Made by a program: the position numbers and the translations under genes
IMG/VR virus record: IMGVR_UViG_3300021093_003900
Coordinates: 51,057-115,056 of that record
DNA from: a virus
Reading direction: 5' to 3' (one strand)
Length of the DNA: 64,000 nt
In this document: one piece after another, positions 2,671-14,197 of the stretch
Position numbering within the stretch: the first letter of the stretch is position 1
Layout of the letters: each line of letters starts with the position of its first letter
Notes under the pieces: model-generated
Told to the model about the DNA's origin: nothing
The model's input: only the letters and a program-made list of their open reading frames with translations
The model's database searches: none

Positions 2671-3606
2671 TCAATTGAAGTATGTTCGGTACTCTTTGAA
2701 ATACAAATTTGTATTTTCAGGTAAATGATCAGTAAAATTGTGTATATTATCAATAAACTTTAAAGTATTTCGATAACCAATTATTTCGTTCTCTAAGTTA
2801 CGAATAAGATCTTGAGGATTTCTTTCTTGATAGACTGAAGCTGAAGTAAAAATAACAGAGTTGGGATGATAAAATTGTTGAATGTATGCACCCCAAATGT
2901 CATCCATTCTTCCGACAAATGGTAAAACTGAATAATTTTTCAATACACTTCTGTGCAGAAAAGTATTTTGTGAATTATATGGTGTCATTTGGTGTGTTGT
3001 GAATGGGTCAAATTTTTCAAATTTTACAATTGGTTTTTTACTCAATCTACAGATCGCATCAATATCTGGATCACCATCCCAAAATTCAGCTTGTACTAAG
3101 GGTACAATTTCAATCTTTCCTTTATATTCAATATCGTTTTTGACTTTCAAGTATTCAATAGGAAATCCTCTGTGCCACAAATCATTGTGACTAGTGATAG
3201 ACAATGGATCAAAGTACGAACAATTAATGTTTTCATAGAGATCGACAATAACCTTTTGTCCAACATAAATTTGATCACCCCAAAAATCGTAAGGGATATT
3301 ATCATCATCTACTGTTGCAACTATCTCAGCTTGATTGAGGTAAGCGTAAATAAAACCGATATTTCTTCTTTGTATAGTATTCCAACCAATTACGTTAGAT
3401 ATTTTTGGAAATAATGTGTCTTGTTGTTCGGGGGAAAGATAAACTACATTTTTGTAGTTTTTTTCTAGTTTTCTATATTCATTATGTGGTGTTTTTTTAT
3501 CACCAACTATTATAAACTGAAAACCTTTTTTGTCAGCAATCTCACAAAATTTTAGTGTTGCTTTAGTCGGACTATTAATCGTTGTGGTAACTATAAACTT
3601 TATCAT
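2671..3606 (-). CDS. STELLO/DUF288-like (GT75-related) glycosyltransferase
   Basis: IVTTTIN, VGDKKTP, RRNIG, DDDN, RGFP, DPDIDAICR, NSQNT, RMDDIW motifs; start reassigned to MIKF. Confidence 0.75.
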   Translation of the reverse strand: MIKFIVTTTINSPTKATLKFCEIADKKGFQFIIVGDKKTPHNEYRKLEKNYKNVVYLSPEQQDTLFPKISNVIGWNTIQRRNIGFIYAYLNQAEIVATVDDDNIPYDFWGDQIYVGQKVIVDLYENINCSYFDPLSITSHNDLWHRGFPIEYLKVKNDIEYKGKIEIVPLVQAEFWDGDPDIDAICRLSKKPIVKFEKFDPFTTHQMTPYNSQNTFLHRSVLKNYSVLPFVGRMDDIWGAYIQQFYHPNSVIFTSASVYQERNPQDLIRNLENEIIGYRNTLKFIDNIHNFTDHLPENTNLYFKEYRTYFN

Positions 3607-11460: not shown

Positions 11461-12144
11461 TTAAATTCCTGTTGAACCAAACCCATTTTCACCTCGTTCC
11501 TTATCTTGTAAATTTTCTTGAAGTTGTAAATTAACTACAGATCCTACATAGACAGGATATAGTCCACATTGAGCGATTTTTTGTTGTTTTTTTATAACAA
11601 TTGGGTCTGGTGTTGAGTTGTAAACAATCACTTTTATTTCACCATTATAACCCGAGTCAATTGTTCCCGGACTGTTTAAAACGATCAATCCTTGATTGAT
11701 AGCAAGACCACTTTTAGTTCTGACTTGTAATTCATTATGTGAAGGAATATCAAACTTCAACCCTGTCGGAATTAAAGCTCTCTGAAACCCATCTAATTTG
11801 TACTCAATTACCGAATGCAAATCGAAACAGGAGTCTGTTCCATAATTATATTTGGGATCTACAGCATCAGGATGAATCTTGACGTAATTTAGTTTCATTC
11901 TTTGATCCATATTTGATTGATCAGATAATTCAGTCATAAAGTTTGAATTTTCTTCTGAAGAAAGAATTGCTATAAGGTTTTCTAGATCGAACCCGAGTTT
12001 TTGTGATAAATTTGACAACTCGTTTTCATCATCTTCTTTTGTAAATTCTTGAGATAGATTTTTTAATTCTTCTTGAAGTTCAGACAATGTTTGATTTATC
12101 TCATAATCAGGATCGTCAAGTTTGTTTGTATTACTATTGTCCAT
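11461..12144 (-). CDS. dut: trimeric dUTPase with ~80-aa acidic N-terminal extension
   Basis: FDL, KSGLA, NSPGTIDSGYNGEIKV, IAQ, RGENGFGSTG. Confidence 0.9.
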   Translation of the reverse strand: MDNSNTNKLDDPDYEINQTLSELQEELKNLSQEFTKEDDENELSNLSQKLGFDLENLIAILSSEENSNFMTELSDQSNMDQRMKLNYVKIHPDAVDPKYNYGTDSCFDLHSVIEYKLDGFQRALIPTGLKFDIPSHNELQVRTKSGLAINQGLIVLNSPGTIDSGYNGEIKVIVYNSTPDPIVIKKQQKIAQCGLYPVYVGSVVNLQLQENLQDKERGENGFGSTGI

Positions 12145-12845
12145 TATTTTAATTCTTTTAGTTTTTTTATTAAGTCAACTAATACTAAAACGTCCCTCTC
12201 ACAATACTCAACAATCAAATTAAGTTGATTGTGTTCCCAGTATGCTTCGTGAACTCTATTACCCGTAATTTCACCTTCTTTAGATGATGGTACACCCATA
12301 GCTGAGCACATTAACTCCAAGGACGATAAACCAAAAGGATTACCAAATTTCCAGACATCCATAGTATCTATTGCTCTAATTTCCCAAGGTTTTGTTTCAT
12401 AACTTGGTAGTAATGTTGAAGGTTTAATTCCGTTTATTACCATCCTTTTAAGTAAGTGAGGAATATCAAAATTTTTGACATTGTGACCACACAACCAAAA
12501 ATCCGATTTTTGAACTTTATTGAATAAATGATTAATTTCAAATAGAGTTTGTTTTTCATCATGTCCTGAGATGGTTTGTTTGTGAACTTTTCCATCAGGT
12601 GTTACAAAAGCAAAACTAGCACAGACTATTTTTGAAAACTCGGGAACAAGTGCTGCTCGGTTTATAAACACTTGTTCTTTTGGTAATTCTTTATCTTCAG
12701 GAAATCTTTTCAAAAACCAGTCAAAATAGTTGTGAAATTGCTTAAACAACATTTCATTGTTCTTTTCAAGCTCTTCATAGTTTTTGAATAAACCTACAGT
12801 TTCAATGTCAAAAAAAAGGATTTTATTTATTGGTTGTGTAATCAT
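12144..12845 (-). CDS. stand-alone 3'-5' exonuclease (PolB-exo-like DnaQ family)
   Basis: FFDIETV, GHNVKNFD, KPWE, YCERDV (ExoI/II/III). Confidence 0.85.
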   Translation of the reverse strand: MITQPINKILFFDIETVGLFKNYEELEKNNEMLFKQFHNYFDWFLKRFPEDKELPKEQVFINRAALVPEFSKIVCASFAFVTPDGKVHKQTISGHDEKQTLFEINHLFNKVQKSDFWLCGHNVKNFDIPHLLKRMVINGIKPSTLLPSYETKPWEIRAIDTMDVWKFGNPFGLSSLELMCSAMGVPSSKEGEITGNRVHEAYWEHNQLNLIVEYCERDVLVLVDLIKKLKELK

Positions 12846-14097
12846 AATATGGATCTGTAAAATTCTGCTCTATCTTTTGTAACTTTTTCTAAACTATATT
12901 TTTCGTGGACAGTTTCATATAATCGTTCACCCAAGTCTTTGGCGAAGTTTGGATTTTGAATAAGTTTTTTAACATACTTAAACCAATCACCGTGATTTCT
13001 GTTTTCATCTACTAATAATGCGTTTCCGTTGGTAAATATACCATTATCTAAGGCATGAGTCAAATCGATAGTATAAGGTCCGAGATTAGATGCAATCAAA
13101 GCTTTCTTGTAAAAACCAGCCTCAATTACTTTCAATTGAGATTTCATTCTATTGAAAATGTGATTCTTGATAGGTGCCAAAGATACATCAAATTTTGTAT
13201 AATTTTTTGCGTATTGTTGAATCGGTCTTGTCCAAATTCTCTTATAGAATTCGTGAGAAAATTGACTATCATCCTCCTCTTTAAATCTCATTAATAAATT
13301 ATGATATTCAGGTGATATTAATTTATAATTGTCTGTGAATACTTGTTCATATTTGTACCACACAGTTTCATGTGGTTTAATATCTCGTTTTTTCTGTTCT
13401 CCAGTTTGTTGATTAATTTCAGTCACAGTACCTCGTATATCAAACCCACAAAGATAAACTTCAGTTGTGCCTTTGTACTCGTGCATACGAGAAAAAATTG
13501 ATTCAAGTATAGTAATGTCGTGTAAGTGAGATGAACCACCTAACCATCCAAATCTTAACTTATCTGAAGGTTCTGTAACCGCATTAAATTGAGCCTCAGT
13601 TTTACTAATTGCATTAGGAAATACAACAGCGTTTTTATTATACTTTGTTATTTCCTGAGCAAAAATACTCGTTGTTGTCATCACATAATCACTAACTTTT
13701 AGATTTTCTATTATCTTTTCGTGAATTTTATTTGACACAACTAAGTCGTGAATAGGATGATCTTTTGTCGGTAACCAGTAGTCATCCAAGTCCATAACTG
13801 TCTTTACACCTAATTGACCAACCATTTTAATCAAATTGGCTGAGGTATCATAGTTTTGACCAATAGTTCTGTGGAAATGAACTATATCATATTTTCGCCA
13901 AAAATTGATATCGTTTATTTGGGGTTCATATTCAATATCAATATGAAAGTCATTAGGATACATATTTTGTAAAAAAATATGTGGATCGATTGATCTGAAT
14001 TTACCTTTAGTTAACCAACCCCCGTACGGTCAGATGGGACTACAAGAATCCTGATCTTTTCGCGACCATTTGGGGGTGGAATTGAATTTTGTTGCAT
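12842..14097 (-). CDS. GT-B (GT4-like) glycosyltransferase interrupted by an 11-nt insertion after codon 28 (recoded or disrupted)
   Basis: ORF 12842..13963 (DLDDYW, GWLGGSSH, KSQLKVIEAG) is open upstream to GKFRSIDPH at 14005; MQQ...KIRILVVPSDRTGVG* at 14097..14011 in another frame supplies the missing N-terminal strand. Confidence 0.75.
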
Positions 14098-14152
14098 AGT
14101 TAGAAATTATATTCTAAGAGTTTATTGTACTCGTAAAACGAATAACTCTAGA

Positions 14153-14181
14153 ATTATAATCTAAAATACAATGATTTTCAA
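14153..14181 (-). promoter_or_regulatory. sigma70-like promoter TTGAAA-N17-TATAAT
   Basis: Near-consensus hexamers with 17-nt spacer at the head of the left glycosylation operon. Confidence 0.5.
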
Positions 14182-14197
14182 GGTAGAAATATAAATA

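Follow-up and report, generated by a model that had tools for sequence, protein, structure and literature searches.

The locus described here raises the question of whether a phage glycosyltransferase gene that is interrupted within an invariant motif, by a stop codon and a change of reading frame, is a dead gene or is still translated into one enzyme. It lies in the window, the whole stretch of 64,000 nt that was analysed, which is part of a 115-kb IMG/VR viral contig (G000, CheckV completeness 38%) from an uncultured lake phage. The leader, the gap and the body of the gene are all on the minus strand. The leader of 28 codons (14014 to 14097, with its ATG at 14097-14095) holds an N-terminal extension of 9-11 codons, the beta-1 strand of a glycosyltransferase and the start of its Gly loop, and the 28-residue leader peptide ends in ...KIRILVVPSDRTGVG. 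Its last codon, read from the sequence as GGT (Gly28, 14014 to 14016), is referred to as the take-off codon. This codon is adjoined by TAA (14013-14011) and then by CTAAA (14010-14006), and these 8 nt (14006 to 14013), which are free of G, make up the coding gap in front of a second GGT (14003 to 14005), the landing codon, after which reading would resume at AAA (14002-14000). The body of the gene (12842 to 14005) consists of 387 codons and a stop, running from the landing codon to the stop at 12844-12842 in a frame that is shifted by 11 nt relative to the leader.

More than 7000 homologues of 403-405 aa are continuous through this site (...PSDRTGVGKFRS...), with the unbroken consensus ...PSD(R/K)TGVGKFRS(I/V)DPH.... 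Since the homologues are unbroken, the window carries exactly 11 extra bases, and deleting 11 nt gives exact colinearity. The layout that the initial annotation had read from the letters, with ATG at 14097 followed by GGT-TAA-CTAAA-GGT on the minus strand, is confirmed in the sequence, as is its fused protein of 414 aa: the predicted product of a hop from the first to the second glycine codon has 28 + 386 residues and is colinear with the homologues.

The downstream frame is open from 14029, behind a stop at 14032-14030, and there is no ATG, GTG or TTG in this frame between that stop and the landing codon. An internal restart was rejected on these grounds, the in-frame ATG at 13963 not being conserved. 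A single-base error in a run of five G in the leader, which would account for a -1 reading, was also rejected, because comparison with the homologues reveals 11 nt too many where such an error would leave 1 nt too few, and because the G run is unconserved. In present annotation such genes are called truncated proteins of 366-374 aa, or pseudogenes.

Recurrence of the interruption and the form of its junction

To establish how widely the interruption occurs, loci were gathered with three types of query, namely the gene body, the neighbouring endonuclease and the leader peptides. They contain 67-70 distinct leader-plus-gap sequences and 18 junction forms, and the step from take-off to landing is 5, 6, 11, 12 or 13 nt, so that all three frame classes are represented. 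The 5-nt form reads GGT-TA-GGT or GGT-TA-GGC, where the stop codon TAG overlaps the landing codon and shares its G, and the 6-nt form reads GGY-TRA-GGN. For the 11-nt step the gaps are TAACTAAA (that of the window), TAACCAAA, TAAATCAA, TAACAAAA and TAAAAAAA; for the 12-nt step they are TAACCAACA and TAACAAAAC; and for the 13-nt step the gap is TGAATTTAAA. Across the variants the gaps range from 2 to 10 nt and are unstructured and A-rich, and every one of 11 gap sequences opens with a stop codon, with no G following the stop in any of them (0/11). A skip from the first to the second glycine gives ...TGVG/KFRS... in all 18 junction forms. Aligning homologous genes, which had been proposed at the outset as a check, thus reveals that the arrangement GGN-stop-gap-GGN recurs with variable gap sequence and length and with colinearity always restored. 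This recurrence supports the core idea of the initial annotation, a bypass from one glycine codon to a matching one across a stop, from which we infer the hop itself.

The composition of the junction is constrained on both sides of the gap. Because the variants are related, the following counts do not represent independent events: 69 of 70 distinct variants have GGY for take-off (in intact genes, this glycine is encoded by GGY in 55 of 76), a stop codon stands directly 3' of it in 70/70 (TGA 39, TAA 29, TAG 2), and the landing codon is GGT in 53 variants, GGC in nine and GGA in eight. The eight GGA landings would be an imperfect, wobble-mismatched fit for a GCC anticodon, and they count against a hop. 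So does the one exception at take-off, locus L118 (positions 3393-3480), which reads AGT-TAA-GGC and has serine in place of glycine, together with a full endonuclease gene and an intact downstream frame of 423 aa; AGT cannot re-pair with GGC, and either L118 is a dying allele or exact re-pairing is not strictly needed. As a separate observation, two loci with the 5-nt step GGT-TA-GGT (L267 and L269, at about 1580-1620) resume with GSYRS instead of GKFRS, so that the K and F after the landing codon, which are otherwise nearly invariant, are changed.

The leader and 8-nt gap of the window are found unchanged in L005, L242, L243, L244 and L245, which are other contigs from other samples, and the gene bodies in contigs with the window-type module differ from that of the window at synonymous sites (dS 0.9-1.9). 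The same leader and gap next to diverged bodies in other samples indicate that the interruption is no assembly artefact. An assembly or sequencing error, the former of which was listed among the first alternatives, would be conceivable in a contig that comes from metagenome assembly, but at least five contigs assembled from other samples share the same 11 bases next to diverged flanks, and dozens more have related forms, which leaves such an error a negligible probability; the independent assemblies effectively refute it.

As the steps fall in all three frame classes, no single frameshift or readthrough event serves every form, and an explanation by conventional recoding has to be assigned form by form, with readthrough for steps of 6 and 12 nt and a -1 (or +2) frameshift for steps of 5, 11 and 13 nt. 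The window itself offers some room for such an event, since the open downstream frame leaves an 18-nt overlap where a -1 shift works, there is a five-G run at 14024-14020, and a -1 shift in this run (ACG-GGG-G) would yield ...TGGWLTKGKFRS.... However, the G run is not conserved and reads GGGCG in L062, L166 and L170, and the products of frameshifting or readthrough would carry 1-4 extra residues in the invariant Gly loop, differing from one form to the next. Three mechanisms would be required where one is enough, and the GGY take-off, the GGN landing and the G-free gaps would be left unexplained. We therefore consider conventional recoding very unlikely, and a hop between the two glycine codons is preferred for all forms. 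An alternative genetic code in which TGA or TAA is a sense codon was rejected as well, because the 5-, 11- and 13-nt forms would remain out of frame and neighbouring genes read normally.

Selection across the gap and an RNA hairpin 5' of the take-off codon

A sequence search of the PDB with the glycosyltransferase gave no match, and the Pfam family Glyco_trans_1_4 scores only 14.5 bits, under its cutoff. An AlphaFold model of an intact homologue that is 95% identical (P0003, pLDDT 78) has Foldseek matches to GlgM, MshA, BshA and PimA with E-values of 1e-9 to 1e-12, and it places the beta-1 strand at residues 6-11 and the Gly loop at residues 12-24. Judging from this model, the gene product is a GT-B glycosyltransferase, GT4-like, with two Rossmann-like domains, and the model and its matches bear out the early proposal that the fused protein opens with the first beta-strand and Gly loop of a GT-B enzyme. 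Given the modelled positions of the strand and the loop, the break splits beta-1 from the remainder of the N-terminal domain. Directly 3' of the glycosyltransferase gene, the region 11461-12845 holds a gene that resembles PolB-type 3'-5' exonucleases (PF10108, 51 bits), and also a gene with a dUTPase-like C-terminal half, the latter judged by eye from the sequence.

Both parts of the interrupted gene carry the signature of selection on protein. For the gene body, dN/dS is 0.03-0.15 overall and 0.03-0.11 for pairs of interrupted alleles, with dS from 0.8 to about 2. Among 55 distinct leaders the enzyme residues I, L, S, D, G and V are all invariant, and this is maintained through codon turnover, with L encoded by six codons and S by both TCN and AGY. 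Invariant residues despite synonymous codon change indicate that the leader is selected as protein, and since it amounts to beta-1 and half a loop only, such selection makes sense only if the leader is joined to the remainder of the enzyme. Residues that are invariant in the family flank the gap on both sides (G17, V18 and G19 before it; R22, S23, D25, P26 and H27 after it). The downstream frame is intact in 49 of the 49 cases that are complete in their contig, with lengths of 386-423 aa. Given the spread of the interruption by recombination, these intact frames and low dN/dS values could in part reflect recent invasion of working genes.

The initial annotation had drawn a small UUGG-UUAA-CUAA hairpin across the site itself. 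This hairpin is outside the minimum-energy fold and is not kept in the gaps TAAATCAA, TAAAAAAA and TGAATTTAAA; the conserved structure is instead an upstream RNA hairpin of 65 nt, on the minus strand from 14015 to 14079. The codons of the N-terminal extension supply its 5' arm (14079-14063), the 3' arm extends as far as the first two bases (GG) of the take-off codon, and the minimum-energy fold in the window has -25.7 kcal/mol. The extension of 9-11 codons is present in every interrupted gene and absent from ordinary intact genes. For the 78 nt that end at the stop, the folding energy is -29.7 +/- 3.1 kcal/mol in the 67 interrupted variants (67/67), compared with -9.7 +/- 3.6 kcal/mol for the same region in 72 intact genes. 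Taken alone, the hairpin of the window beats shuffled sequences modestly (z = -1.6 for 111 nt and -2.2 for 78 nt).

RNAalifold detected no consensus structure when all 29 leaders were aligned without gaps, which is explained by a change in the register of the 5' arm between cassette families; sub-family folds and a test with chimeras were used for this reason. In a sub-alignment of 12 sequences that includes the window, 92% of cells are paired, against 28-45% with slid partners, and compensatory changes occur at three pairs of the hairpin. Chimeras that combine the 5' half and the 3' half from diverged cassettes lose 8-11 kcal/mol. The extension peptides vary by cassette family (PPNGRE, TPDVRR, RLDHRE, TPVDQ) and the base pairing is kept, so that a role of the extension as RNA is better supported than one as peptide. 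Two loci (L249 and L310, 1501-1600 in each) have a long leader of the LNGRE type and no gap, with hairpins of only -14.4 and -9.4 kcal/mol respectively, and L249 has a 35-aa endonuclease remnant upstream; both have probably reverted by losing the gap precisely.

Linkage to a homing-endonuclease gene and exchange of the module

In locus L019 (at 2019-2933) and many others, a 304-aa ORF occupies the space between a conserved upstream gene and the leader, whose ATG it overlaps. This ORF contains a NUMOD3 match of 31.6 bits (Pfam cutoff 20.4) and a weak restriction-endonuclease-like C-terminus. Among interrupted loci this endonuclease gene is full in 23, a remnant in seven and absent in three (the window, L005 and L039), all of them scored, and among intact loci it is full in nine, a remnant in three, absent in 63 and not scored because of a short flank in two, where the loci found with the endonuclease query inflate the linkage in the full-gene counts. 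The window has no endonuclease gene detectable by tblastn, and its upstream 186-aa ORF has no nuclease domain.

The gene-body tree requires at least nine changes of the interrupted state, which is scattered among close uninterrupted relatives. Compared with the nearest uninterrupted allele, L001 (95% protein identity), homology is lost from 14197 to 14006 on the minus strand, a segment that comprises spacer, leader and gap and ends exactly at the landing codon; divergence is still elevated for ~80 nt beyond the landing codon, to about 13925. The body of L001 is 96-98% identical to that of the window and its 5' module is different. In L243 the flanks are 95-99% identical to those of the window, the leader is identical and the gene body is 68-79% identical, so that the body of the glycosyltransferase gene is a mosaic. 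The 92 nt of leader and gap are identical in the window, L242 and L243, with dS of 0.9-1.9 between the gene bodies, and this identity in diverged backgrounds implies that the module is exchanged on its own. The site behaves as a recombination hotspot, and leader, hairpin and gap form one exchangeable module, which in relatives is mostly found directly behind the free-standing NUMOD3 endonuclease gene. The window is a hit-and-run allele that kept the module and lost, or never received, the endonuclease. The mobile-element footprint that had been offered as an alternative to bypass is no rival explanation and belongs to the same story.

Upstream of the leader, on the minus strand at 14153 to 14181 in a 100-nt spacer (14098-14197), there is a sigma-70-like candidate promoter, TTGAAA-17-TATAAT, identified only by its match to 11 of 12 consensus positions. 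At the aligned position in endonuclease-bearing loci, TTGACT-17-TATAAT is found within the 3' end of the endonuclease gene. The spacer also contains an inverted repeat, TCTAGAGTTATTCG...ACTCTTAGA, just 5' of the ATG.

The mobility of the module bears on a reading in which the interruption is collateral damage: a dispensable glycosyltransferase would have been killed by the endonuclease cassette, or by imprecise repair of the cut that it makes, and the genes would look intact only through the recency of each invasion. The module is mobile by recombination, as the at least nine state changes and the identical 92-nt module in diverged backgrounds attest, and low dN/dS could therefore predate the invasion; the genome of the window also has many other glycosyltransferase genes, so that one of them might be dispensable. 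A dead gene, however, needs no matched glycines, no immediate stop, no G-free gap and no colinearity in 18 junction forms. Between diverging cassette families the enzyme residues of the leader do not change despite codon turnover, none of the 49 complete frames is broken, even in alleles whose endonuclease is decayed or gone, and the hairpin is kept by compensatory change and lost where the gap is lost. We consider collateral damage unlikely, and favour a gene that is still translated by way of a hop.

A related question is what the insert does for its carrier. A real but inefficient hop could be mainly regulatory and keep the amount of enzyme low; even in T4 gene 60 bypassing has an efficiency of only about 50%, and at a stop codon in the A site there is competition with release factors. 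The initial annotation had similarly supposed that the element sets how much of the lead enzyme is made. The evidence favours an origin in a homing-endonuclease cassette instead: the interruption is tied to that cassette and scattered among close uninterrupted relatives, which selfish spread and immunity fit better, and gap-less genes are without any comparable element. A mainly regulatory role is thus quite unlikely in our estimation. By analogy with the gap of gene 60, which protects against MobA, the insert in an invariant coding motif most likely protects its carrier from the endonuclease.

Distant members of the endonuclease family (38-53% identity) were also observed directly upstream of uninterrupted glycosyltransferase genes, in L096, L097, L099, L101-L107, L114-L116 and others. 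The glycosyltransferase genes beside them have short N-termini and unusual codons for PSD..GVG (e.g. CCT AGC GAC ... GGA GTT GGA). Their codon choice suggests that these alleles may resist cleavage by synonymous recoding and not by a gap.

A predicted short hop and its relation to known bypass systems

Taken together, the 8-nt gap, with its 11-nt step, is probably crossed by a programmed short translational hop that would depend on the hairpin and a slow stop codon and would operate on an endonuclease-immunity insert, as far as can be judged from comparing sequences. In such a hop the ribosome would arrive at the end of the 28-codon leader, its P site occupied by GGU and its A site by UAA, and the stop codon would be decoded slowly. 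The 3' arm of the hairpin would at that point be inside the ribosome and its mRNA exit channel, and its re-pairing with the 5' arm on the outside would draw the mRNA forward over a distance of at most about the length of the 5' arm, a maximum that fits the observed limit of 13 nt. The peptidyl-tRNA-Gly, most likely with the anticodon GCC, would leave GGU, slide across the G-free, A-rich gap and re-pair at the first GG that it meets, the landing GGU; AAA would be read next, and the 414-aa GT-B enzyme, colinear with its homologues, would result.

A Shine-Dalgarno (SD) signal is not expected to contribute. In contig G000 an SD-like motif precedes 5 of 104 ORFs of at least 120 aa, the GC content is 32% and upstream regions are A-rich. 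The low number of SD motifs is compatible with a host that makes no use of them, such as a member of the Bacteroidota, and it makes an SD "arrestor" unlikely here. An SD-like AAAGG 5' of the landing codon was set aside as probably irrelevant, given that SD-like motifs are found before only those 5 of 104 ORFs. No tRNA genes, suppressors included, were found in the window or in the 115-kb contig.

Programmed bypassing has so far been represented by one phage example, T4 gene 60 with its homologues in topoisomerase genes, and by one yeast mitochondrial system. In the literature that was searched, bypass cassettes are described for topoisomerase genes only (Manning & Atkins 2022), and no published description of a cassette in a glycosyltransferase gene was found. 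Among cultured phages a DNA search found nothing, and the relatives that a protein search detected have at most 32% identity.

In T4 gene 60, a 50-nt bypass is carried by the MobA homing-endonuclease element (Huang 1988; Bonocora 2011; as cited in Manning & Atkins, bioRxiv 10.1101/2022.08.31.505936). The gap protects against MobA, and pairing of the mRNA on exit has been proposed to drive forward bypass. The locus described here resembles gene 60 in its glycine take-off codon, its immediate stop and a glycine landing codon readable by one and the same tRNA, in an A/U-rich gap free of premature landing triplets, and in an N-terminal segment added to the interrupted ORF. In both systems an invariant coding motif has received the insert, a free-standing homing endonuclease is linked to it, and this endonuclease is progressively lost while the gap is retained. 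A structure 5' of the take-off codon that would re-form on exit is also common to both, here the 65-nt hairpin in what we infer to be a driving role. There are equally clear differences. The host gene here encodes a GT-B glycosyltransferase and not topoisomerase II, without sequence homology, and it has not been divided into two ORFs; the gap measures 2-10 nt in place of 47-50; the gap is unstructured, so that there is no stem-loop 3' of the take-off codon, and a long hairpin lies 5' and ends in that codon; and there is no usable SD element. The endonuclease here combines NUMOD3 with a weak restriction-endonuclease-like C-terminus, whereas MobA is an HNH enzyme.

The closest geometry is that of the synthetic "stop-hops" of +5 and +6 in Escherichia coli, which are of low efficiency and were made in reporter constructs (Weiss et al. 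1987; reviewed in Atkins et al. 2016, PMC5009743). There, too, matched codons surround a stop, 9 nt are decoded as one amino acid and a slow A-site codon triggers the event, and the 5- and 6-nt forms found here have exactly this geometry. The present family differs from the stop-hops in being natural and conserved, in having a dedicated hairpin and in extending to 11-13 nt. According to the 2016 recoding review (PMC5009743), no natural in-frame stop-hop was known. The "byp" inserts in the mitochondria of Magnusiomyces capitatus, of 27-55 nt (Lang/Nosek 2014, as reported by a citing paper), are likewise short mobile inserts in essential coding sequence that translation leaves out; their 3' part is A/U-rich and SD pairing is not used. 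They differ in being mitochondrial and longer, in their spread like that of GC clusters, in an unassigned sense codon in the A site and in the lack of a linked endonuclease gene.

We lean, with some reserve, towards regarding these loci as the first natural stop-hop family, an SD-independent, hairpin-driven bypass of 5-13 nt that would have evolved apart from T4 gene 60. In a homing-endonuclease cassette it would supply the immunity half, and its 92-nt module would still be spreading into endonuclease-free genomes. If so, it is a case in which a selfish endonuclease can put an immunity insert into an invariant enzyme motif and the gene is not killed. A second independent phage family would separate the signals that are dispensable for bypassing from those that are general, and its dozens of natural variants are a ready mutational series. 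The stem-loop in the A site, the SD arrestor and the long gap are absent or unusable here, and what gene 60 and the glycosyltransferase cassette would have in common is an A-site codon that is decoded slowly, the use of a glycine tRNA, the lack of landing triplets in the gap and base pairing of the mRNA as it exits.
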